NCBI GenBank assembly: GCA_036478295.1
Contig: JAZGDW010000175.1
Location: forward strand, 1-20,959
Reading direction: 5' to 3'
DNA from: Candidatus Krumholzibacteriia bacterium
GTDB taxonomy: Bacteria; Krumholzibacteriota; Krumholzibacteriia; WVZY01
Length of the DNA stretch: 20,959 nucleotides
The notes beneath the pieces are model-generated. The model was not told the origin of the DNA. It did no database searches and worked only from the letters and a program-made list of their open reading frames with translations. Below are positions 2,545-19,698 of this stretch, in pieces. A program made the translations under genes and the position numbers. Within the stretch, counting starts at the first letter, position 1. Every line of letters starts with the position of its first letter.

Positions 2545-3207
2545 ATGGGCATCCCCGAAAGACGAGAGCGCGAGAAGGAGCGGCGGCGCGTCGACATCAT
2601 CGACGCCGCCGAGAAGGTGTTTTTCTCCAAGGGCATCGGCCAGGCGACGATGCACGACGTAGCGGAGGCGGCCGAGTTGAGCAAGGGCACGCTCTACCTC
2701 TATTTCAAGAACAAGGAAGATCTCTACCTGGCCATCATCCTGCGAGGGATGGCCATCCTGCAGGCTGGGTTCGAGGCGGCAGTGAAATCCACGGAGAAGG
2801 GGATCGACAAGGTGGCCGCCATCGGGCGGGCGTATTTTGATTTCTGCGACAACCACCCCGATTACGTGAACGCAATGCTCCATTACGAATCACGGGACGC
2901 GGCGGCGGACCCGTCCGGTTACGCGTCCGAGTGCAACGCCCAGGGCAAGGACATAACGGCGACGTGCGCGAGGGCGGTGCAGTCCGGGATCGAAGACGGC
3001 AGTATCCGCGGCGACGTGGATCCGGTAAGAACGGCGCTCACCCTTTGGGGTTTGTCGACGGGCGTGGTGCAGATCATCGCGACAAAGGGAGAAATGATCA
3101 AGGAATTACACGGCATCGACCCGCAGGATTTGACGGAGACGTTTTTCGATTTGATCAACCGGGCGCTGAACCCTGACGGTCCCGCCGGGCGCGGCGGGAC
3201 ACGGTGA
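2545..3207 (+). CDS. TetR/AcrR family transcriptional regulator
   Basis: N-terminal HTH: IIDAAEKVFFSKG...ATMHDVAEAAELSKGTLYLYFKNKEDL; SD AAGGA upstream. Confidence 0.96.
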   Translation: MGIPERREREKERRRVDIIDAAEKVFFSKGIGQATMHDVAEAAELSKGTLYLYFKNKEDLYLAIILRGMAILQAGFEAAVKSTEKGIDKVAAIGRAYFDFCDNHPDYVNAMLHYESRDAAADPSGYASECNAQGKDITATCARAVQSGIEDGSIRGDVDPVRTALTLWGLSTGVVQIIATKGEMIKELHGIDPQDLTETFFDLINRALNPDGPAGRGGTR

Positions 3208-3222
3208 ACGAGTGAGGGAACA

Positions 3223-4719
3223 GTGGACTACAAACAAGGTAGGTGTGGAATGATGTTTCGGGTGTGTTTCGCAACCCTGATAATCGCCGTAATCGCCCAG
3301 AGCAGTTACGCACAAACCGTTTCCTTGGAAGAATACCTGGAGAAAGTACGGATCAACCATCCCTTCTTCGCCAAGGAAGCGTTGCAGACCGATATCGAAA
3401 AGCTGGGTCGTGACCGCTTTCTCGGCGTCCAGGACTGGGCGGTCAATTCTTCCGAGAGGGCGTCCTACCAGAAGACCGTCATCAACAGTACGTTTGCGCC
3501 GGACCGGGTGTACACGCTGGACGGAACGGCGTCGGTGGACCGTATCTTCTGGAATAGCGGCGGTCGTTTCTCGCTGACCTGGCAGTCGATCCTGTCCGAC
3601 CAGTCTCTGCCGGGTATCAGTGTGCCGGGCCCGGGCGGCACGACCATCGAGGTTCCCACGGGGGCCTCGCGTTTCTACGAGAACCGGGTCATCGCTAGCT
3701 ATTCGTACCCGCTGCTGCAGAACCGCGGCGGCGAGCTGGATCGTCTCGAATACGAACTGGCCGAGTTCAACATCGACTTCTCCGAAGTGCAGGCGCTGGA
3801 GAACCAGGAGAACTTCCTGCTCGATGTTGGTTTGCGTTTTGTCGACTGGGTGCGGGCGGTCGAGCAGAGCCGCATCGCGCGCGACCGCCTGAGGCTCGCA
3901 GAAGAGCAGCGTGCGCAGACCCTGCGCAAACGCCGCGTGAACCTCGTGGACAAAGTGGACGTGCTGCGGGCCGATGACGCCGTGCAGATCGACAAGGAAG
4001 TTCTCGTCCTGAACCAGTCGAGGGAGCGCGCCGTGCTGGCCGTGCTGGCCGTGCTGGCGCAGGACCCGGAGATGACCGGCGGCTCACCCGACATGGATCT
4101 GTACCAGCTCGAAGACATCCCCGCCATAGAGGACGCGGTCCGGCGCGTCCACGATCAACGGGTCGTCGAGACCTTGCGCATCCGGCTGCAGCAGGTCAAA
4201 CGCCAGCAGAAAGGCATGGACGATCTCGCCCGGCCGCAGCTTTTCCTTAGCGTGAGCGGGGGACTACAGGAAGGCGACGAGGATTTCGTCGACGCGCTGG
4301 GGCTCAGCAAGCCGGACATCGGAGTCGCGCTGGATTTTCGGTATCCGCTCGGCAACCGTACCGCTCGCGCGGACGTCGCCCAATCCCAGCTGCAGATACG
4401 CCAGCTCGAGAAGGAGATCGAGAACGTGTCGCTGAACCTAGAATCAGAGCTCCGCAGCTTGTGGATTCAGATTACGGAGCTGGTGGTGGTCCTCGAATTG
4501 AACAAGGAGCAGATCGAGACGGCGCGCAAGAAGACCCGTGAGGAAAAGCGCCTCTATGACCAGGGCCGCGGTGAGCTGACGTTCGTAATCCAGAGCCAGG
4601 ACAGCGAGGCGCTGGCCGAGCTGCGCTACGCGGTAAACGCTGCCACCTACCACCAGCTGGTGTTGGGTTACCGGGCCATCCTGGACGAGCTGCTGCCGAC
4701 ACCGCAGGTCGTGCAGTAG
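3223..4719 (+). CDS. TolC/outer membrane efflux (OEP) family protein
   Basis: Signal peptide ending SSYA/QT, two OEP-like repeats (YSYPLLQN..., FRYPLGNRTARA..., EEKRLYDQGR), located next to an RND gene. Start may be ATG 3250/3253. Confidence 0.88.
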   Translation: MDYKQGRCGMMFRVCFATLIIAVIAQSSYAQTVSLEEYLEKVRINHPFFAKEALQTDIEKLGRDRFLGVQDWAVNSSERASYQKTVINSTFAPDRVYTLDGTASVDRIFWNSGGRFSLTWQSILSDQSLPGISVPGPGGTTIEVPTGASRFYENRVIASYSYPLLQNRGGELDRLEYELAEFNIDFSEVQALENQENFLLDVGLRFVDWVRAVEQSRIARDRLRLAEEQRAQTLRKRRVNLVDKVDVLRADDAVQIDKEVLVLNQSRERAVLAVLAVLAQDPEMTGGSPDMDLYQLEDIPAIEDAVRRVHDQRVVETLRIRLQQVKRQQKGMDDLARPQLFLSVSGGLQEGDEDFVDALGLSKPDIGVALDFRYPLGNRTARADVAQSQLQIRQLEKEIENVSLNLESELRSLWIQITELVVVLELNKEQIETARKKTREEKRLYDQGRGELTFVIQSQDSEALAELRYAVNAATYHQLVLGYRAILDELLPTPQVVQ

Positions 4720-4731
4720 GCACCCGTGGGC

Positions 4732-4763
4732 GCCGTGCCTGCTGAACGTTTGACAGGCACGGC
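4732..4763. repeat. Intergenic hairpin between tolC and the RND gene
   Basis: GCCGTGCCTG-N12-CAGGCACGGC, 10-bp perfect stem with no U-tract. Confidence 0.6.
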
Positions 4764-4795
4764 AGCGCGGACGAACAAGAACAGACGAACGAACC

Positions 4796-7700
4796 ATGAG
4801 AACATTCTTTAGATTTTTTGCCAGGCGACATCTTCTCGCCACGGTGATCACCTTGATGACGATCCTGTTGGGTCTCAACACACTGGTGCACATCAAACGC
4901 GACGTGTTCCCGTCCGTGGACTTTGGCGAGTTGATTATCACTACCGTGTATCCCGGCGCGTCGCCCGAAGATGTCGAGCTCAACGTCACCAACAAGATAG
5001 AGGACGAATTGAAAGAGGTGACGGGGATAGACCGCATGACGTCGGTCTCCATGGAGAACATCTCGGTGCTGGACGTCATCATCGACCCGGACCTGCACGA
5101 CCAGGACGACGTCAAGCGGGAGATTCGCGACGCGGTGAACCGTATCACCGACTTTCCCGAGGCGGTGGACGAAGCGCCCAATATTTTCGAGGTCACTACG
5201 GCGGTGTTCCCCGTCGTCGAGGTGGGGCTCTCGGGAGACATCCCGTACCGCGAGCTCAGAGAGCACGCAAAGCGGTTCGAAAAAAAGCTCAAGGACCTGC
5301 CGGGAGTGGCCAGGGTGGACCGCTACGGATACCGCGACCGCGAGATCCAGGTGGAAGTGTCGCCGGAGGCCATGCGGCGATACCAGATTCCGCTGCGCGA
5401 AATCATAAACGCCATCGCCAGCCGCAACATCCGCGCCACCGGCGGCACGTTCGAATCTTACACCAGCGAGAAGACAGTCGTGACCCTGGCGCAGTTCCGC
5501 GATCCGCTGGAAGTCGGCGACGTCATCGTCCGCTCCACTTTCGACGGGCCGCTCATCAAGATTCATGATCTAGCGATCGTAAAGGATGATTTCGAGGACG
5601 AACGTATCATCTCGCGCATGAACGGCCGCCCGAGCATTTCCTTCATCGTCAACAAGAAGGAAACGGCGGACGTGATCCGCACCGTGGATTCGATCAGGGA
5701 CCTGGTCGAGGAGATGAACGGCAGCCTGCCGGAGGGTGTCGAGGTCCTCTACTCGGCCGACCAGTCCTTCTACGTCCGCAACCGTTTGAAAGTCGTCTCC
5801 AACAACGGCTGGATCGGACTGGGCCTGGTCCTGCTCATGCTGAGCCTTTTCCTCAACATGCGCAGCGCCTTCTGGGTCGCGATGGGCATACCGGTCACGG
5901 TCTTGGGTGTGGTGTTCATGCTGCCGCTGTTCGATTCCTATCTGGACGTGATCGCGCTCGCGGCGATGGTCCAGGTGATCGGCATCGTCGTCGACGACGG
6001 TATCATTATTGCCGAAAACATACACAAACACCGCGAGAGGGGCGTGCCACCGCTGCAGGCCGCCGTGGACGGCATCAGCGAGGTCTTCTGGCCGGTGTTC
6101 ACCACGATCCTCACCACGTTTATCGCGTTCGCCCCGATGTTCTTCATGTCGGGCATCATGGGCAAGTTCGTCTTCGTCATTCCGCTCGTCATGTCGCTCG
6201 CGCTCTTCATCTCACTCTTCGAGGCGATGGTCGCGCTGCCCGCGCACCTCATTATGGGGCTGCGGGAAAATGGCGCCGCGATGGCCAGGCGGTCGCGGGG
6301 GTGGTTCGACCGCGTGCGCAGTTTCTACAAAGCATCCATGCGTCACGTGTTGCGGCTGCGGTACCTGGTGCTTGCGGCGGCCGTGGCCTCGCTGGCGACG
6401 TGCTTGTGGTACGCAGTGACGTTCATGGACTTCGTGCTTTTTCCGACGAGCACGGCAGACACGTTTTTCCTGCTCGTGGAAACGCCGACGGGGACGTCAC
6501 TGCAGGCGACATCGCGCAAAGTGCAGGAACTGGAGAAACTCGTAGCAGCCCTGCCCAAGGAAGAGTTGCAGTCATTCGTCACCCGCGTGGGGACGCAGGG
6601 CGATTTTTCGCCGGGCGAAAACGAAAACTGGGCCATCATCGGCGTGAACCTGACGCCGTACGACCATCGCTCGCGGGCGGCCGACGAAATCGTGGAGGAC
6701 CTCCGGGCCCAAAGCAACCAGATCGACGGTTTCGACAAGATCGTGTATTTCATCGACGCCGGCGGGCCGCCGGTGGGAAGACCGATTACGCTGCGGGTGG
6801 TCGGCAGCGACGACGAGATGCGTGTGGCACTGGCCGATTCGGTGGAAGCGTTTCTCGAGGGCTTCAGCGGAGCCAAGGACATCGACCGCAACGACAAACG
6901 GGGCAAGGATCAGGTCGAGATCAAGATCGACTACGACAAGCTGGCCCGTGTCGGACTCACAGTCGCCGATATCGCACAGAACGCGCGTTTTGCCTATGAC
7001 GGTGAAGTGGTGACGGACGTCCGGTACGGCGATGAAGACGTGGATTTCCGGGTGCAGCTGCAGGAGCGCGCGCGGGGCAATCCAAAGTTCCTGCGCGAGT
7101 TGCTCGTACCCAACGAACGCGGCCGCATGATCCCGCTGAGGGATGTGGCGAGACTCGAGACCGGCCCCGGCCCGTCGAATTACTACCATTTCGACGGGGA
7201 CCGGGCCGTGACCGTTACCGCGGACTTCGTCAAGGGTGTCACCACGCCGCTCAAGGTGACCAAAGCGGTGGTCGAGCACTTCGATCTGGAGGAGGATTGG
7301 CCGGCGATGCGCTTCGTGATCGGCGGCGAAGCGGAAGAAACACAGCGATCGATGCAGAGCCTTTTTCGCGCGTTCATGATCGCCATCATCGGCATTTACT
7401 TCGTGCTGATGCTCCTCTTCAATTCGCCGATGCAGCCGTTCATGGTCATGGTCGCCATTCCCTTCGGTATCATGGGGGTAATCATCGCGTTTGTCGCGCA
7501 CGGCCAGGACATTGGCTTCCTGGCGATGATGGGTCTCGTGGGACTGAGCGGAATCGTCGTCAATGATTCGCTGGTGCTCGTCAACCACATCAACACCCTC
7601 AGGCGCAACTCACCCGAGACAAACATCCGGGAGATTGTCCTTCAAGGCGCCGCCGACCGGCTGCGCCCGGTGTTGCTGACGACGGTGACCACCGTCGTCG

Positions 7701-7888
7701 GTCTCCTGCCGCTGGCCTACGGCATCGGCGGGTCCGACCCCTTCATCGCGCCCATGGCGCTGGCACTGGGGTACGGTATCCTCTTCGCGTCGCCCCTCAC
7801 CCTGGGGCTCGTGCCCGCCCTCTACCTCATCGCGGAGGACGTACGCCATATTTTCAGACGCCGGCACAGGGAACCCGCGGCGGCCTAG
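4796..7888 (+). CDS. Efflux RND transporter permease subunit (AcrB/AcrD/AcrF family)
   Basis: 1030 aa; YPGASPEDVE, TM4 GIVVDDGIIIAENI, TM10 GIVVNDSLVLV, RLRPVLLTT. Confidence 0.97.
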   Translation: MRTFFRFFARRHLLATVITLMTILLGLNTLVHIKRDVFPSVDFGELIITTVYPGASPEDVELNVTNKIEDELKEVTGIDRMTSVSMENISVLDVIIDPDLHDQDDVKREIRDAVNRITDFPEAVDEAPNIFEVTTAVFPVVEVGLSGDIPYRELREHAKRFEKKLKDLPGVARVDRYGYRDREIQVEVSPEAMRRYQIPLREIINAIASRNIRATGGTFESYTSEKTVVTLAQFRDPLEVGDVIVRSTFDGPLIKIHDLAIVKDDFEDERIISRMNGRPSISFIVNKKETADVIRTVDSIRDLVEEMNGSLPEGVEVLYSADQSFYVRNRLKVVSNNGWIGLGLVLLMLSLFLNMRSAFWVAMGIPVTVLGVVFMLPLFDSYLDVIALAAMVQVIGIVVDDGIIIAENIHKHRERGVPPLQAAVDGISEVFWPVFTTILTTFIAFAPMFFMSGIMGKFVFVIPLVMSLALFISLFEAMVALPAHLIMGLRENGAAMARRSRGWFDRVRSFYKASMRHVLRLRYLVLAAAVASLATCLWYAVTFMDFVLFPTSTADTFFLLVETPTGTSLQATSRKVQELEKLVAALPKEELQSFVTRVGTQGDFSPGENENWAIIGVNLTPYDHRSRAADEIVEDLRAQSNQIDGFDKIVYFIDAGGPPVGRPITLRVVGSDDEMRVALADSVEAFLEGFSGAKDIDRNDKRGKDQVEIKIDYDKLARVGLTVADIAQNARFAYDGEVVTDVRYGDEDVDFRVQLQERARGNPKFLRELLVPNERGRMIPLRDVARLETGPGPSNYYHFDGDRAVTVTADFVKGVTTPLKVTKAVVEHFDLEEDWPAMRFVIGGEAEETQRSMQSLFRAFMIAIIGIYFVLMLLFNSPMQPFMVMVAIPFGIMGVIIAFVAHGQDIGFLAMMGLVGLSGIVVNDSLVLVNHINTLRRNSPETNIREIVLQGAADRLRPVLLTTVTTVVGLLPLAYGIGGSDPFIAPMALALGYGILFASPLTLGLVPALYLIAEDVRHIFRRRHREPAAA

Positions 7889-13918: not shown

Positions 13919-15118
13919 ATGACCGAAGCAGGCAAAGCGATCATAATCGGTGTTCCGAAAGAGACATTTCCCGGTGAACGTCGGGTCGCTTTGATTCCCG
14001 ATGTAATTCCCGGTCTGAAAAAAGCGGGCGCCGAGGTTCGAGTCGAAGCGGGAGCGGGCGTCGAAGCGAGCATTACCGATGCGGCCTTTTCCGAAAAAGG
14101 TGCGACCGTTGTCTCGAGTCGCGATGAACTTTTCAAAAGCGCCGACGCGATTCTGCAGGTGAGAACGTTCGGCGCCAACCCGGAGGGAGGCCGCTCCGAC
14201 TTGGACAGGTTGCAGAAGGGGCAGATGGTAATCGGCTTCACCGAATCCCTCGGTGAGCCCGAGCTTTCGAAAGAACTCGCGGCGTCGGGTGCGATGCTTT
14301 TTTCCCTCGAGTTGCTGCCGCGTATAACGCGCGCACAGAGCATGGACGTTCTCTCGTCGATGGCGACCATCGCCGGATACAAGGCGGTGCTCATCGCCGC
14401 GGAGCTCCTGCCGCGGATGTTTCCCATGCTTATGACGGCGGCCGGAACCGTTGCGCCCGCGAGGGCGTTTGTTATCGGCGCCGGCGTGGCCGGGCTGCAG
14501 GCCATTGCCACCGCGAAGAGACTCGGCGCGGTGGTCAGCGCCTACGACGTTCGCCCGGCGGTTAAGGAACAGGTGGAGAGTCTCGGCGCCAAGTTCGTGG
14601 AGTTGGAGATCGAAGCCGGCGAGTCGGAGGACAAGGGCGGTTACGCCAAGGCAATGGATGAGGAATTCTACGCCAGGCAGCGCGAGCTCATGGCCCGTGT
14701 GGTCGCGAAGAACAACGTGGTCATAACAACCGCCGCCATTCCCGGCAAGAAGTCGCCGGTGCTCATAACAAAGGAAATGGTCGCGGGCATGTCGCCCGGC
14801 TCGGTCATCGTGGACCTCGCTGCCGAGCGGGGAGGCAACTGCGAGCTCACACGGGCCGGCGAAACCATCGTCTCCGGTGGGGTTACAATCACCGGCCCGC
14901 TCAATCTCGCCTCGACGATTCCGTATCATGCCAGCCAGATGTATGCGAAGAACATCAGCACGTTCTTTCTCAACATGGTGAAAGAGGGTGAGGTACGGCT
15001 CGACATGGAAGACGAGATTGTCCGTGACACTCTGGTCACCAAGGACGGCGAGGTGGTCCAGCCGCGCGTTCGTGAATTGCTGGGTCTTGGTCAGGCCGAA
15101 GTAGCAGAAGGGAGTTAG
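13919..15118 (+). CDS. pntAA: NAD(P) transhydrogenase subunit alpha, part 1 (dI, NAD(H)-binding)
   Basis: GVPKETFPGERRVALIP, RAQSMDVLSS, GAGVAGLQAI, GGYAK, VDLAAERGGNC. Confidence 0.97.
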   Translation: MTEAGKAIIIGVPKETFPGERRVALIPDVIPGLKKAGAEVRVEAGAGVEASITDAAFSEKGATVVSSRDELFKSADAILQVRTFGANPEGGRSDLDRLQKGQMVIGFTESLGEPELSKELAASGAMLFSLELLPRITRAQSMDVLSSMATIAGYKAVLIAAELLPRMFPMLMTAAGTVAPARAFVIGAGVAGLQAIATAKRLGAVVSAYDVRPAVKEQVESLGAKFVELEIEAGESEDKGGYAKAMDEEFYARQRELMARVVAKNNVVITTAAIPGKKSPVLITKEMVAGMSPGSVIVDLAAERGGNCELTRAGETIVSGGVTITGPLNLASTIPYHASQMYAKNISTFFLNMVKEGEVRLDMEDEIVRDTLVTKDGEVVQPRVRELLGLGQAEVAEGS

Positions 15119-15123
15119 CAACA

Positions 15124-15402
15124 GTGGAAGCTCTGGTCATAACCGTTACTATTTTTGTACTCGCGATTTTTGTGGGGTTCGAGGTGATTACCAAGGTACC
15201 CCCGACCCTGCACACGCCGCTCATGTCGGGATCGAACGCCATTTCGGGTATCACCCTGATCGGCGCCATCCTTTCCGCCGGTTCCCAGCAAACGACGCTC
15301 ACCACCATTCTGGGTTTCACGGCGGTGGTGTTCGCGACGGTCAACGTCGTGGGCGGGTTTCTGGTAACGAATCGCATGTTGAAAATGTTCAGACGCAAGT
15401 AA
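15124..15402 (+). CDS. pntAB: NAD(P) transhydrogenase subunit alpha, part 2 (membrane)
   Basis: VPPTLHTPLMSGSNAISG, NVVGGFLVTNRMLKMF; GTG start with GGAG SD. Confidence 0.97.
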   Translation: MEALVITVTIFVLAIFVGFEVITKVPPTLHTPLMSGSNAISGITLIGAILSAGSQQTTLTTILGFTAVVFATVNVVGGFLVTNRMLKMFRRK

Positions 15403-15524
15403 CCGCCTCGCCGGCCGGCGGCGGTATAACGGCGATTGGAGCCGGCGCGGTACGGGCCGCGGCCAAGGTCGCCCGGTTGCCAACACCAGACGGCGGCACT
15501 CTTTAATTTGCAAAGGAAACGAAC

Positions 15525-16919
15525 ATGCAGGGTGCAGCAATCAATTTGACCTACCTGGTAGCATCGGTGCTCTTCATTATGGGACTGAAAGGGCTCGGCC
15601 ATCCGCGCACCGCAGTCCGCGGCAACCTGCTTGGCGCCGTGGGAATGTTTTTGGCCATCGTGGTGACGTTGATCGATCGCCGCGTGTTGTCCTTCGAGGT
15701 GATTATTGCCGGCGTGGTCGTCGGGGCGCTGGTCGGCTCCATCCTCGCCGTCAAGATACAGATGACTGCCATGCCGCAGCTCGTGGCCCTTTTCAACGGC
15801 TTCGGCGGCGGCGCGTCGGTACTGGTGGCCGGGGCGGCGCTCATCGAGGCCGGCGTGATCAGCGGCGGTTCGCTGTCGTCGCAACTGGCCGTCGCCACCG
15901 TGGCGACTGGGCTTATCGGCGCGGTGACGTTCTGGGGCAGTCTCGTCGCCTTCGGCAAACTACAGGAAGTGATCTCGGGCAACGCCATTCATTTTCCCGC
16001 GCATCAGGTGGTTAACACGATCCTCGTCGCCGCCTGTCTGGCGGTCGGTGTGATGATCGTGAGGGACCCGTCCGCCACGATGCTCTACTGGGTGCTGGTC
16101 GGCCTCTCGTCGGTCCTGGGTGTGTTGCTGGTGATTCGTATCGGCGGGGCAGATATGCCGGTCGTCATCGCGCTCCTCAACTCGTACTCAGGTCTGGCGG
16201 CGGCGGCCACGGGATTCGTGCTGTCGAACAACGTGCTCATTATCGCCGGGTCGCTCGTCGGCGCGTCAGGACTCATTCTCAGCAATATCATGTGCAAGGC
16301 GATGAACCGCTCGCTGACCAATGTGCTCTTCGGCAAGCTCGCCCCCGCGGCGGGGTCGGCGACGGCAGATGAGGTTTACGCCGGCAAGGTCAAATCCACG
16401 TCGGCCGAAGAGGTCGCGATGCTCTTCGATACGGCACAGCGCGTCGTCTTCGTCCCCGGCTACGGCATGGCGGTGGCGCAGGCGCAGCACGCGGTGCGGG
16501 ACCTGGCCAACCTGCTCGAGTCCAAAGGTATCACAGTGGAATTTGCCATTCACCCGGTAGCCGGCCGCATGCCGGGACATATGAACGTGCTTTTGGCAGA
16601 GGCAAACGTCGAGTACGACAAGCTCAAGGAATTGGACGAGATCAACCCGACCATGGACCAGGTGGACGTCGCCATCGTCGTCGGCGCCAACGACGTGGTC
16701 AACCCCGTCGCCAAGACCGACCCCAAGAGCCCCATCGCGGGCATGCCCATTATCGAGGTGGACAAGGCACGGACGAGTGTCGTCATCAAGCGGAGTTTGA
16801 GTCCGGGTTTCGCCGGGATTCCGAATCCGTTGTTCGCGGCGGACAACAACCTGATGTTTTTTGGCGACGGCAAGAAGGCCATTCTCGAACTGATCGCCGC
16901 TGTCAAGGAGGCGGCTTGA
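15525..16919 (+). CDS. pntB: NAD(P) transhydrogenase subunit beta
   Basis: MTAMPQLVALFNG, GGADMPVVIALLNSYSG, PGYGMAVAQAQ, HPVAGRMPGHMNVLLAEA, GANDVVNP. Confidence 0.98.
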   Translation: MQGAAINLTYLVASVLFIMGLKGLGHPRTAVRGNLLGAVGMFLAIVVTLIDRRVLSFEVIIAGVVVGALVGSILAVKIQMTAMPQLVALFNGFGGGASVLVAGAALIEAGVISGGSLSSQLAVATVATGLIGAVTFWGSLVAFGKLQEVISGNAIHFPAHQVVNTILVAACLAVGVMIVRDPSATMLYWVLVGLSSVLGVLLVIRIGGADMPVVIALLNSYSGLAAAATGFVLSNNVLIIAGSLVGASGLILSNIMCKAMNRSLTNVLFGKLAPAAGSATADEVYAGKVKSTSAEEVAMLFDTAQRVVFVPGYGMAVAQAQHAVRDLANLLESKGITVEFAIHPVAGRMPGHMNVLLAEANVEYDKLKELDEINPTMDQVDVAIVVGANDVVNPVAKTDPKSPIAGMPIIEVDKARTSVVIKRSLSPGFAGIPNPLFAADNNLMFFGDGKKAILELIAAVKEAA

Positions 16920-16930
16920 CCGGAAGCGGG

Positions 16931-16960
16931 TTGAATCCCGCGGCGGTATTTCGTTATTAT
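16931..16960 (+). promoter_or_regulatory. Possible sigma70 promoter for the Rieske-ychF-rlmI cluster
   Basis: TTGAAT (16931-16936), 18 bp spacer, TATTAT (16955-16960). Confidence 0.35.
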
Positions 16961-17018
16961 GGCGGCGGTGTCGGATCATAGTGACGTGATCGGCGCCCGC
17001 GAGACGCGAGAGGTGCGT

Positions 17019-17324
17019 ATGAAGATCAAGGTCTGCAAGACCGCGGATATCCCGGCGGACGGCATGAAGTCTTTTGACATCGAGGGGTCCCCCGTCCTTG
17101 TTGCCAACGTGGGCGGCACATTCTATGCCATCGCGGACACCTGCTCACACGCGATGGCGTACCTGTCGGAAGGCGAGCTCCTCGAAGACTGCCGTGTGCA
17201 ATGTCCGGATCACGCAGCCGTATTCGACCTCAAGACGGGGGAAGCACTCGAGCTCCCCGCCGTAGCGCCCGTTGAAAGCTACCCGTTGAGCGTCGAGGGC
17301 GAAGATCTCTTCATCGAAAAATAG
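17019..17324 (+). CDS. Rieske [2Fe-2S] ferredoxin (dioxygenase ferredoxin subunit type)
   Basis: CSH...LSEG...VQCPDHAAVFDLKTG...PA; SD GAGGT before ATG 17019. Confidence 0.94.
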   Translation: MKIKVCKTADIPADGMKSFDIEGSPVLVANVGGTFYAIADTCSHAMAYLSEGELLEDCRVQCPDHAAVFDLKTGEALELPAVAPVESYPLSVEGEDLFIEK

Positions 17325-17429
17325 GCCGCGCCTGACCGACTCCTGCACGTATCGAACAGAACCGCCGTTGCTACGTTGTCGAGTGCGTGGAGCCGGCGGT
17401 TTCCTCTTGGGTCCTTGGGGAGGACTGCC

Positions 17430-18503
17430 ATGAACATCGGTATCATCGGCTTGCCGCAAACCGGCAAGAAGTCCCTTTTCGAGCTCCTCGCGGGACCTGG
17501 GACGGCGCGCGGGCGTGGCGAGGGGCGCAAGACCGTCCGGGGAGTGGCGGAGGTGCAGGATCCCCGCTTGGATCGCCTCGTCTCCATCTACTCACCGAAG
17601 AAGCAGTCGCGCGCCCGCATGGACATCCTGCTGCCGCCGACCATCGAGGAACGCGCCGTAACCGAGGGTGATATTTTCCGCGACCTGGCGGAAGTAGAGG
17701 TCTTCTGCCACGTGGTGCGCGCGTTCGCCAACGACGCGGTCTACCACGTGTCTGGATCGGTGGACCCGGGGCGTGACATCGCGTTCGTCAATACGGAATT
17801 CGTGTTGCACGATCACCTCTTCATCGAGAAACGACTCAAGCGACTCGACAAGGACCTCATGAAGAAAAAGGACGACGCGGGAAAACGGGAAAAAGAGCTG
17901 CTTCTCAAACTAGGAGAACTGCTCGAAAAAGAACAGCCGCTGCGGCAGGTGCACATACCACCCGAAGAGGAAAAGATAATCAAAAGCTACCCGCTGCTCT
18001 CGAGGCGCAAAATGATTGTGGTCCTGAACGTGTCCGACAGCGATGTCGGCGACCACGCGCTGCTCGAAGCGATGAGCGAGCGGTTTTCGAACTCCGGCAT
18101 CATGATGGTGCAGGTCGCCGCGGAGATGGAGCTGGAGATCGCCGCGCTCGAGACCGTGGGGGAGCGCGACGAGTTCATGCGCGAGATGGGTATCGAGGAC
18201 ACGGCGCTTCATCTGTTGACCGCGCAGTGTGTCGAGGCGCTGGGGTTGTTGTCTTTTTTTACCGCCGCCCCGAACGAGGTGCGGCAGTGGTTTCTACGGC
18301 GCGGAGCGTACGCCGTGGACGCGGCCGCGCAGGTCCACACCGATCTCGCCCGCGGATTCATACGCGCGGAAGTCATTTCCTACGCGGACCTGGACGAGCT
18401 GGGCAGTGAGGAAGCGGTGAAGGCAGCGGGCAAGCTCGCCGTGAAGGGCCGCGACTATGTCGTCAACGACGGCGATACCCTGTTTATCCGATTCAATGTC
18501 TGA
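17430..18503 (+). CDS. YchF/Ola1-family homologue (DUF933/TGS C-terminus) with degenerate NTPase motifs
   Basis: GIIGLP, D.RL..L, HVVRAF, DP.RDI, FFTA, VHTDLARGFIRAEV, GRDYVVNDGD, FNV*; SD GGAGG before ATG 17430. G1-G3 are non-canonical. Confidence 0.92.
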   Translation: MNIGIIGLPQTGKKSLFELLAGPGTARGRGEGRKTVRGVAEVQDPRLDRLVSIYSPKKQSRARMDILLPPTIEERAVTEGDIFRDLAEVEVFCHVVRAFANDAVYHVSGSVDPGRDIAFVNTEFVLHDHLFIEKRLKRLDKDLMKKKDDAGKREKELLLKLGELLEKEQPLRQVHIPPEEEKIIKSYPLLSRRKMIVVLNVSDSDVGDHALLEAMSERFSNSGIMMVQVAAEMELEIAALETVGERDEFMREMGIEDTALHLLTAQCVEALGLLSFFTAAPNEVRQWFLRRGAYAVDAAAQVHTDLARGFIRAEVISYADLDELGSEEAVKAAGKLAVKGRDYVVNDGDTLFIRFNV

Positions 18504-19698
18504 TCCCGCCACACCGACCGTTCGATTGAAGAAAGGACGCGAGAAGAGCGTGGCCCGCCGCCACCCGTGGATCTTCTCGGGCGCTGTCTCGCGTATCGAG
18601 GGGGAGCCGGGGCCGGGGGACGTGGTGCGGGTGATGAGCGGCGACGGTGCGTTCCTGGCCTGGGGGTATTTCAACCGCGAGTCGCAGTTGCAGGTGCGGG
18701 TTCTGGATCGCGACCCGTCCAGTGTCATCGACGATGGGTGGTGGCGGCGGCGTCTCGACCTGGCCATCCAGCGGCGCGCCGGGCTGCCGGGACTCGAAGC
18801 CACCAACATGTGCCGCCTGGTGCACGCGGAGGCGGACGGTCTGCCGGGACTCATTGTCGATCGTTACGGTGACTTTCTCGTCGTGCAATCACTGACGGCG
18901 GGGATCGAGCGGGTGAAGCCGCTGCTCGGCGAGTTGCTCGGCGAGCTGTGCAAGCCACGGGGCATATACGAGCGGAGCGACAGCGACGGACGCCGCATGG
19001 AGGGGCTGTCCCCCGCGGCGGGACCGGTTGCCGGAGAGACGCCCCCCAAAACCATCAAGGCGCACGAGGGGGGAGTGAAGTTTGTCGTCGACGTGGAGTC
19101 GGGGCACAAGACCGGTTTCTATCTGGATCAGAGGGACAATCGCCGGGCGGTGGCGCGATACGCTACAGGCAGGAGCGTGCTCGACCTCTTCTCCTACTCC
19201 GGCGGTTTCGGGCTCTACGCGTTGGCCGCGGGCGCCCGCTCCGCCACCATGGTGGACTCTTCCGCGGGCGCGCTGGCGCTGGCCCGACAGAACGCCGAGT
19301 TGAACGGCCTCGCGACCGGCGACATAGAATTCGTAGAGGGCAACGCGTTCGATCTCGTGCGGTCGTATCGCGACGCCGCCAAACACTACGATCTGATTAT
19401 TGTCGACCCGCCGAGATTCGCCCAGACCCGGGCGCAGGCATCCAAAGCCGAACGGGCGTACAAGGACATCAACCTGGTGGCGATGAAGCTGCTCTCGCCG
19501 GGAGGTATCCTGGCGACATTTTCGTGTTCGGGCGCCGTGGGCGCAGAGAACTTCTCGCGGGTCATCGCCTGGTCAAGTCTGGACGCGGGGCGCGATCTCC
19601 AGATTATCGAGCGGTTGTCGCAGGGCTGCGACCATCCGGTCAACCCGCTTTTTCCCGAATCACAGTATCTCACCGGCCTGATCTGCAGAGTGTCGTGA
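18496..19698 (+). CDS. rlmI: Class I SAM-dependent rRNA methyltransferase, RlmI-like (23S m5C1962)
   Basis: RRHPWIFSGA (PUA-like), EADGLPGLIVDRY, GHKTGFYLDQRDNR, LDLFSYSGGF, DPPRF, TFSCS, DHP....PE..YL. Confidence 0.92.
   Translation: MSDPATPTVRLKKGREKSVARRHPWIFSGAVSRIEGEPGPGDVVRVMSGDGAFLAWGYFNRESQLQVRVLDRDPSSVIDDGWWRRRLDLAIQRRAGLPGLEATNMCRLVHAEADGLPGLIVDRYGDFLVVQSLTAGIERVKPLLGELLGELCKPRGIYERSDSDGRRMEGLSPAAGPVAGETPPKTIKAHEGGVKFVVDVESGHKTGFYLDQRDNRRAVARYATGRSVLDLFSYSGGFGLYALAAGARSATMVDSSAGALALARQNAELNGLATGDIEFVEGNAFDLVRSYRDAAKHYDLIIVDPPRFAQTRAQASKAERAYKDINLVAMKLLSPGGILATFSCSGAVGAENFSRVIAWSSLDAGRDLQIIERLSQGCDHPVNPLFPESQYLTGLICRVS

Follow-up and report, generated by a model that had tools for sequence, protein, structure and literature searches.

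The 20,959-nucleotide stretch of DNA analysed here, called the window throughout (contig JAZGDW010000175.1 of assembly GCA_036478295.1, from a Candidatus Krumholzibacteriia bacterium), carries a gene whose product is, judged by its sequence, clearly of YchF descent, yet departs from the YchF family in four of the motif definitions that characterise it and scores below the cut-off of the family's equivalog profile. The protein belongs to a branch of YchF relatives, the GKK branch, that is monophyletic, extends over several phyla, is strongly conserved and is under purifying selection. In this branch every Mg2+ and K+ ligand is replaced, while the loop that binds phosphate, the residues for base contact and the helical tip, which touches the ribosome in E. 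coli YchF, are kept. The reading preferred here, with a probability of roughly 0.5, is that this YchF variant would bind nucleotide without Mg2+ or K+, would not undergo a normal hydrolysis-driven switch, and would dock on the 50S subunit via the basic tip of its helical domain. The gene and its parts are the following.

17430..18503, + strand: YchF-type gene of the GKK branch, 357 aa (open reading frame, profile matches, alignments, AlphaFold2 (AF2) model)
17417..17424, + strand: Shine-Dalgarno-like GGGGAGGA, 5 nt 5' of the ATG (direct reading)
17448..17474, + strand: P-loop, residues 7-15, GLPQTGKKS, with Gln10, the Walker Lys13 and Lys14 (alignments)
17493..17549, + strand: former switch I, residues 22-40 (alignments, entropy, AF2)
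17619..17669, + strand: former G3/switch II, residues 64-80, MDILLPPTIEERAVTEG (alignments)
17706..17747, + strand: residues 93-106, CHVVRAFANDAVYH, with Phe99 and His106 kept, Cys93 and Tyr105 branch-specific (alignments)
17766..17927, + strand: inserted helical (coiled-coil) domain, residues 113-166, basic tip K141, K145-K147, K152, R153 (AF2 helices, 8KIE alignment)
18027..18038, + strand: G4 motif NVSD, residues 200-203, Asn200 being invariant in all YchF types examined (alignments)
18246..18497, + strand: YchF C-terminal/TGS domain, residues 273-356 (PF06071 106.6 bits, PF02824 24.7 bits)

The reading frame runs from an ATG to a TGA stop. In phmmer searches against chains of the Protein Data Bank, residues 3-357 of its product align with H. 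influenzae YchF (1JAL, E 1e-58), E. coli YchF (8KIE, E 1.3e-55) and human OLA1 (2OHF, E 4e-47), and a further full-length match is rice OsYchF1 (3e-44). The three-domain order of YchF/OLA1, a G domain, a coiled-coil insertion and a C-terminal TGS domain, is present. YchF-GTPase_C (PF06071) and TGS (PF02824) are the only Pfam matches; at E<=0.1 Pfam gives no match to the G-domain family MMR_HSR1 (PF01926), and the NCBIfam YchF equivalog TIGR00092 is matched with 243.7 bits (243.1 in the genome search), below its cut-off of 279.2. The AF2 model, calculated from a 131-row alignment, has a mean predicted local distance difference test score (pLDDT) of 88.7, a predicted template-modelling score (pTM) of 0.84 and the secondary-structure order of YchF, with helices at 113-145 and 149-166 and a TGS fold at 273-355. 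The ESM Atlas includes the window sequence, and the Atlas model (pTM 0.85) has template-modelling (TM) scores of 0.91-0.95 with canonical YchF clusters. The original prediction, made from the DNA letters alone, had described the frame as full length and the C-terminus as conserved, and the end-to-end alignment, the PF06071 and TGS matches and the AF2 model all bear this out.

The departures from the family lie in the nucleotide site. In phmmer alignments to solved YchFs, with which MAFFT alignments agree, GLPQTGKKS aligns on GLPNVGKST, with Lys14 at the position of the Walker A Ser and Gln10 at that of the Asn; the G1 pattern GxxxxGK[S/T] is thus broken by a Lys at the Ser/Thr position. In switch I, NYPFCTIEPN aligns on 'GE--GRKTVR' with a gap of two residues and without the G2 Thr of NYPFCT or an equivalent of Cys35, and the GKK family as a whole has no conserved Thr or Ser there either; the AF2 model falls below a pLDDT of 50 at residues 29-31, inside this former switch. 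In switch II, 'MDIL-LPPTIEERAVTEG---DIF' aligns on 'MEFVDIAGLVxGASKGEGLGNxFL' with neither the Asp nor the Gly of DxxG. Here the G3 stretch hhDIAGLVxGASKGEGLGN is replaced by hhLLPPTIEERAVTEG, with a deletion of five residues in GEGLGN, and the hhhDxxG pattern is lost, Leu68 standing for the Walker B Asp and Thr71 for the Gly. The same segment holds Glu73, which is invariant in the family but for a single member (E120 of 121). Obg, FeoB and Der of the same genome have canonical G1, G2 and G3 motifs, and the change is therefore specific to the YchF-type gene. The original prediction had named the P-loop GLPQTGKKS and the absence of NYPFxT and of DxxG, and all its statements on the sequence prove correct by alignment. 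It had not mentioned that the P-loop Asn is replaced by Gln10, that G4 is kept as NVSD, answering to the definition (N/T)(M/L/V)xE (PMC8959515), or that His106 is kept. Phe99 is the equivalent of the base-contacting Phe127 of human OLA1 (hOLA1), and His106 that of E. coli His114; it aligns with residue 114 of 8KIE, the chain of an H114A mutant and hence Ala at this place.

The changes are characteristic of a whole group of proteins. They were compared between 121 family members, obtained by a full-length search and not selected by motif, and 32 canonical YchFs (30 from Desulfobulbales plus 2); the canonical set is taxonomically narrower, and only entropy patterns within each set are comparable.

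Position 10: GKK branch Q 121/121; canonical N 32/32
Position 14: GKK branch K 114, R 6, N 1; canonical S 32/32
Position 68: GKK branch L 117; canonical D 32/32
Position 71: GKK branch K/R/A/S; canonical G 31
Position 73: GKK branch E 120; canonical V 32/32
Position 74 (the E. coli Lys78 position): GKK branch E 113; canonical S/K/A

R37, R63, C93 and Y105 are also branch-specific. G7, P9, G12, F99, H106 and N200 are retained in 121/121 members and K13 in 120, the last residue of G4 is D in 88, E in 32 and G in 1, and a basic residue is found at K145 and K147 in 121/121. Common to both sets are G7, P9, G12, K13, R46, H94, R97, F99, H106, N200, V201, D/E203 and the TGS motifs. Across phyla Q10, K14, L68 and E73 always co-occur; position 74 differs by phylum. 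Entropy is lowest in the P-loop of the GKK set (0.40 bits) and amounts to 1.67 in former switch I and 1.27 in former switch II, against a family mean of 1.18, whereas in the canonical set switch I (0.48) and switch II (0.29) are the most conserved segments. Switch I and switch II of the GKK branch have thus relaxed to about the family average. As a side observation, the branch-specific Cys93 (116/121; nt 17706-17708) adjoins His94, and an equivalent of Cys35 is absent.

The 120 best homologues in the full-length search, of 53-97% identity, all have PF06071, and none has PF01926 in the precomputed list. Their named sources are Latescibacterota and Krumholzibacteriota metagenome-assembled genomes (MAGs), and their annotations vary between 'redox-regulated ATPase YchF', 'YchF family ATPase' and 'DUF933 domain-containing protein'. 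A DNA scan for the pattern I-G-[L/F]-P-Q-x-G-K-K in 208 species genomes of the phylum, with a reversed-pattern control that gave no match, found it in 31, all in the two families of the window's order (10/12 plus the window's genome, and 20/23) and in 0 of 172 genomes of seven other families. Among sampled genomes of these other families, canonical YchF is present in G038 (372 bits) and G040 (475 bits), and divergent forms occur at three loci, L014 and L019, which have GKTT and keep DxxG, and L165, which has GKNT but lacks DxxG. A profile of the N-terminal 110 residues, run over 185,579 species with one genome each, produced 588 pattern matches; tblastn confirmed 495 of them. NCBI phylum labels, taken for the best 80 of these 495, are distributed as follows.

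Thermodesulfobacteriota: 24 of the best 80 loci
No phylum label: 18 of the best 80 loci
Omnitrophota: 11 of the best 80 loci
Krumholzibacteriota: 10 of the best 80 loci
Latescibacterota: 8 of the best 80 loci
Spirochaetota: 5 of the best 80 loci
Planctomycetota: 3 of the best 80 loci
Pseudomonadota: 1 of the best 80 loci

Among these 80 loci are those of the cultured Desulfobulbus alkaliphilus DSM 24258 and of Desulfopila sp. IMCC35006. Of 41 Desulfobulbales genomes sampled, 30 have canonical YchF, five of these with an additional low-scoring copy, and six have a low-scoring copy only. The sample also contains three more divergent types: type A, of 343 aa, with GLAQTGKKT...FVLCPDITE; type B, with a normal GK[ST] but neither DxxG nor His106; and type C, with GKTT and DIPG, thus with DxxG kept, and no NYPFCT. 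One type B protein, L158, has GRKT, with a basic residue at K+1, the position after the Walker Lys. Types A, B and C, L158 and L165 lie among loci L152-L165, in Desulfobulbales genomes G046-G083 and in G037 of the window's phylum. A profile search of 1.84 billion cluster representatives gave 4586 matches at E<=1e-3; the best 150 of these have K/R at K+1 in 56 cases and, in 36, Gln at K-3 with a normal Ser/Thr, and 18 of the best 150 read GLPQVGKTS (e.g. P0144, P0149, P0150, P0155, P0159). A graded series of YchF forms therefore exists. The GLPQVGKTS proteins may represent steps from canonical YchF towards the GKK branch, and their motif suggests that Asn gave way to Gln before Ser gave way to Lys. 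The window sequence is also present in public DNA runs of marine sediment metagenomes; there is no RNA run among those listed, which is not informative on expression.

The GKK branch is also a unit by descent. Trees were computed with IQ-TREE under LG+C20 from 55 rows, chosen from 163 sequences to represent each type and phylum, and are unrooted. When all columns are used, the 33 GKK rows group together (support 98 in the Shimodaira-Hasegawa-like approximate likelihood ratio test, SH-aLRT), and a main clade of 29 rows also has support of 98. With columns 98-378, which leave out G1, G2 and G3, the main clade of 29 rows is recovered at 100/98 and its four phylum-level subclades at 100/98-100, the 33 GKK rows lie on one side of a branch with support of 88/77, one change being sufficient in 90% of 200 bootstrap trees, and the 42 divergent rows are split from canonical YchF plus type C at 98/92. 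The window protein has all the marks of the branch: Gln at K-3, Lys or Arg at K+1, Leu in place of the Walker B Asp, Glu73, and membership in one clade on motif-free columns. A single clade of all YchFs with a basic residue at K+1 was rejected, L158 being independent: the tree needs two changes (approximately unbiased test, p 2.6e-8).

Selection on the gene was measured as the ratio of nonsynonymous to synonymous rates (dN/dS) by the Nei-Gojobori method (NG86) in 11 pairs; in three of the more distant pairs dS of sub-regions is saturated. Against a genome of the same genus dN/dS is 0.093 (residues 1-115: 0.074). The ten remaining close pairs give values of 0.03-0.15, and constraint is as strong on the N-terminal region as on TGS. 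The original prediction had proposed a selected, altered form, had suggested testing for a clade of GKK proteins without DxxG under purifying selection, and had named substitutions unique to this genome, with relaxed selection, as what would speak against it. The dN/dS of 0.03-0.15 and the same substitutions in 121 relatives uphold the selected form, and the clade is found (88/77 on motif-free columns). Since the substitutions are shared throughout the branch and selection is purifying, with dN/dS at 0.093 for the window gene itself, the objection falls. The same evidence bears on the idea that the gene is decaying or is an artefact of assembly or annotation. A score under the TIGR00092 cut-off and the missing PF01926 match are what one would expect of such a gene, but the frame is intact, most relatives have 355-358 aa, the AF2 model is confident, and purifying dN/dS (about 0.03-0.15) with the same motifs in 121 proteins of 53-97% identity rules this idea out, leaving it a probability close to nil.

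A TIGR00092 search of the window's MAG (316 contigs, 91% complete) found one full-length YchF-type match, that in the window, and no canonical ychF. Among 36 genomes of the window's order, searched in the same way, 33 have one YchF-type match each (198.6-279.1 bits), the three without one being 65-83% complete, and canonical YchF was found in 0 of the 36, which include three single-contig genomes (G011, G012, G015). GK-K stands in the N-terminus of 30/30 order genomes whose N-terminus was read. No other full-length YchF-type gene was found in the genome, and the window gene is thus no paralogue there. The original prediction had called it a paralogue and a possible antagonist of canonical YchF; neither description holds for this genome, one of the 36 of the order that all gave no canonical match, and the search for canonical ychF elsewhere in the genome that it had proposed yielded only a relic of 57 aa on contig C42. 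Outside the order, the variant is alone in 40 of 51 genomes checked, whose completeness is not given, and canonical YchF (460-496 bits) stands beside it in 11 of 51, several times on the same contig at a distance of 35-62 kb (G042, G104, G112, G121, G128, G130). Such coexistence would be needed if the variant were a dead paralogue acting against canonical YchF, as antagonist or competitor, within one cell, but the absence of a canonical match from the 91% complete MAG and from the order, single-contig genomes included, and the 40 of 51 genomes in which the variant is alone make this explanation very improbable.

Two smaller observations concern further copies. The relic, at C42:1501-1671 (+), is a YchF TGS remnant with an in-frame TAG that matches TIGR00092 positions 308-364 with 62 bits and lies about 110 nt upstream of tRNA-Pro(GGG) on a contig of 2993 bp. 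As a canonical ychF it was rejected: it is TGS-like only and resembles every YchF type alike (40-58% identity), so that it may stem either from a former canonical copy or from foreign DNA. Two MAGs of the order have a second GKK P-loop match (G009:C249:2971-3375 and G025:C116:34228-34254); one of the two is a fragment at a contig end, and strain mixtures or recent duplicates are possible.

Published work on the substituted and retained positions indicates what the changes might mean. YchF/OLA1 is reviewed as a universally conserved ATPase with invariant G1, G2, G3 and G5 (PMC10144078, PMC8959515). As summarised in one of these reviews (PMC10144078), E. coli Ser16 supports ATPase activity and is phosphorylated, Lys78 determines K+ dependence, Cys35 in G2 is required for redox dimerisation and His114 is critical for ATPase activity (Table 1 there), and E. 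coli YchF(P11/N12) is described as ATPase-deficient in PMC8138138. In full-text literature searches no pseudo or inactive YchF was found among the matches listed, and no paper linked YchF and pseudoGTPase; the DUF933 literature is unrelated, judged by title. The preferred reading proceeds in three steps. First, according to PMC10144078, hOLA1 binds the phosphates by the main-chain amides of Asn32, Val33, Ser36 and Thr37, nucleotide binding is abolished in Asn230Ala, and ATP binding is strongly reduced in Phe127Ala. Since the Walker Lys, the G4 Asn and the Phe are kept, and OLA1 holds the phosphates on main-chain amides, phosphate and base binding may well persist via the P-loop amides, the Walker Lys, Asn200 and Phe99.

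Second, the accounts in PMC6310460 and PMC9599529 have Mg2+ coordinated by the Ser/Thr of Walker A together with the Thr of switch I, with the Walker B Asp bonding to the Walker A Ser/Thr, and in K+-dependent TRAFAC GTPases have K+ bound by the Asn at K-3 (in MnmE by its side chain), the K-loop being an extended switch I. In the window protein the three Mg2+ ligands are gone, Lys14 replacing the Walker A Ser and Leu68 the Walker B Asp, with the switch I Thr absent, and so are the K+ ligand (Asn to Gln10) and the K-loop. With all Mg2+ and K+ ligands replaced, metal-dependent catalysis would be removed. The proposal is that the charge normally provided by Mg2+ comes from Lys14, which would pair with Glu73, a residue particular to the branch, and the protein would not cycle through switch I and switch II conformations. 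Third, E. coli YchF is described in PMC11814078 as retained on ribosomes only with non-hydrolysable analogues or as H114A, and as binding uL14, bL19 and H62 mainly via its helical domain, whose tip lysines K149, K152, K156 and K159 contact 23S H62; K141, K145 and K152 of the window protein align with three of these four (counted on the 8KIE alignment). Since E. coli YchF is ribosome-bound only when hydrolysis is blocked, a non-hydrolysing variant would resemble the ribosome-bound state. It might thus act as a 50S-binding factor permanently in the 'ATP state', possibly with a role in anti-association, subunit splitting or stress-related translation control.

Several points weigh against this reading. 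The pLDDT of the AF2 model is 67, 60 and 67 at residues 21-30, 71-80 and 101-110, that is, in former switch I, former switch II and the His106 loop. The pairing of Lys14 with Glu73 is deduced from their co-occurrence, which represents one or two evolutionary events by the trees, and the exceptions at positions 14 and 73 show no covariation, as E73 is present in the N14 protein and K14 in the G73 protein. Docking on the ribosome is presumed solely from conserved charge, and, given the coexistence in 11 of 51 genomes, the two YchF forms need not do the same job. The invariance of His106 (121/121), odd if hydrolysis is lost, fits the preferred reading least. Moreover, a salt bridge between Lys14 and Glu73 could equally fill the pocket and exclude nucleotide.

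On this last point turns a rather doubtful but serious alternative, that the protein is a nucleotide-free pseudo-NTPase of the class i type, in which the Lys14-Glu73 salt bridge would fill the Mg/phosphate site and the G domain would be a scaffold fixing the helical and TGS domains for ribosome or RNA binding. CENP-M is a class i pseudoGTPase. Such a state would be consistent with the loss of all three Mg ligands and of the K+ ligand, with switch regions that lack their exceptional conservation, and with the joint appearance in the branch of a basic residue at K+1 and an acidic one at position 73, and protein-binding modules are among the class i pseudoGTPases described in PMC12490416. The class i proteins described there have displaced G1, G4 and G5 loops and no bound nucleotide, however, whereas here the P-loop is the most conserved segment and G7, P9, G12 and K13 are (near-)invariant, as are N200 and F99, which are found in 121/121 members and whose human equivalents are needed for nucleotide binding. 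The lost G1/G4/G5 geometry of that class is thus not what is seen. With His106 also at 121/121, the retention of the P-loop backbone, the G4 Asn, the base-contacting Phe and this His argues against a simple, empty pseudo-NTPase.

The conservation of His106 favours instead an altered ATPase, in which the Lys14 ammonium would replace Mg2+ or the activating K+ at the beta and gamma phosphates, Glu73 would position Lys14 or act as a base, and His106 would be catalytic, giving a Mg2+/K+-independent and perhaps ribosome-stimulated activity. His106 is invariant in the GKK branch and lost in type B, L014 and L165, and the P-loop, G4 and Phe99 are retained. We know of no precedent for a P-loop NTPase that hydrolyses without a divalent metal, which counts against such an enzyme. 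K+ ions and Lys/Arg fingers are described as interchangeable stimulators in P-loop NTPases (PMC6310460), but PMC9599529 describes three conserved residues as the reference for TRAFAC catalysis, the Ser/Thr of Walker A, the Asp of Walker B and the Thr of switch I, and the window protein has none of them; this explanation is considered unlikely. A related and still speculative proposal, held with low confidence, is that of a metal-free P-loop protein in which the Lys14 ammonium, held by Glu73, would occupy the TRAFAC Mg2+ site. It would bind ATP or another phosphorylated nucleotide, for example an alarmone, without Mg2+ or K+, and would either hydrolyse it by a metal-free, His106-dependent route or be a pure sensor of nucleotide occupancy on the 50S subunit. 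If this were true, whole bacterial orders would run the YchF function without the canonical ATPase cycle.

Compared with bacterial YchF (8KIE/8W51, 1JAL HI0393, TIGR00092), the window protein shares end-to-end homology, the order of G, inserted helical and TGS domains, the NxxE/D G4, Phe99, His94, His106, the basic helical tip and the TGS motif HxD...RGFIRAE. It differs in having Lys for the Walker A Ser, Gln for the P-loop Asn, no switch I Thr or Cys35, Leu for the Walker B Asp, no DxxG Gly, no GEGLGN stretch and Glu at or next to the Lys78 position, and in falling under the equivalog cut-off. Human OLA1 (2OHF) and rice OsYchF1 (5EE0-5EE9) are likewise homologous over their full length, with the equivalents of Asn230 and Phe127 kept, but unlike the window protein they have G2, G3 and the Walker A Ser. 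Class i pseudoGTPases (AAGAB psGD, the p190RhoGAP pG domains) resemble it as G folds that lost catalytic residues and were kept under selection; in the description of PMC12490416 their G1/G4/G5 geometry is lost and no nucleotide is bound, whereas the G1 glycines and Lys and G4 are invariant in the window family. The K+-dependent TRAFAC GTPases (MnmE, Era, EngA, FeoB, canonical YchF) share its class and the GxPxxGK frame of the P-loop, but the window protein has Gln for Asn at K-3 and a shortened, variable K-loop (switch I). Other divergent YchFs also combine degenerate nucleotide motifs with intact helical and TGS parts, yet type B keeps GK[ST] and is without DxxG and His106, type C keeps G1 and G3, and L165 has GKNT.

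The GKK branch would be a natural test of what the YchF ATPase is for and of which YchF functions need hydrolysis, and it allows one to ask whether Lys can replace Mg2+ in a P-loop. The variant is the sole YchF type found in the whole order of the window and in most of the checked genomes with an Omnitrophota, Spirochaetota or Thermodesulfobacteriota label, the cultured Desulfobulbus alkaliphilus DSM 24258 among them, and genomes in which both forms coexist, such as that of Desulfopila sp. IMCC35006, allow comparison of what each YchF does. There is also a relevance for annotation, the GKK proteins being inconsistently named at present.

The gene has two close neighbours in the window.

16959..17324, + strand: small Rieske [2Fe-2S] protein, upstream (neighbour annotation)
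18496..19698, + strand: PUA and S-adenosylmethionine-dependent methyltransferase of RlmI type, downstream (likely ATG 18496; longer open reading frame from 18457)

At 18496-18503 (ATGTCTGA) the end of the YchF-type gene, with its stop, and the likely beginning of the RlmI-type gene share 8 nt, an arrangement that suggests translational coupling of ychF and rlmI. pntB, the Rieske gene, the YchF-type gene and rlmI are syntenic within the window's order only, the ychF-rlmI pairing being found in many order genomes, and no shared neighbours were found at twelve loci from other phyla. As a clue to function the neighbourhood was set aside, since a synteny confined to one order carries little weight. 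In several phyla redox proteins (Rieske, rubrerythrin, prismane, Rex-like) are encoded next to the gene, and in the window the Rieske gene has pntA-like and pntB transhydrogenase genes upstream of it (13919-16919). Farther away, genes for a TetR regulator, an outer-membrane efflux protein and an AcrB-type resistance-nodulation-division (RND) pump stand in a row (2545-7888).

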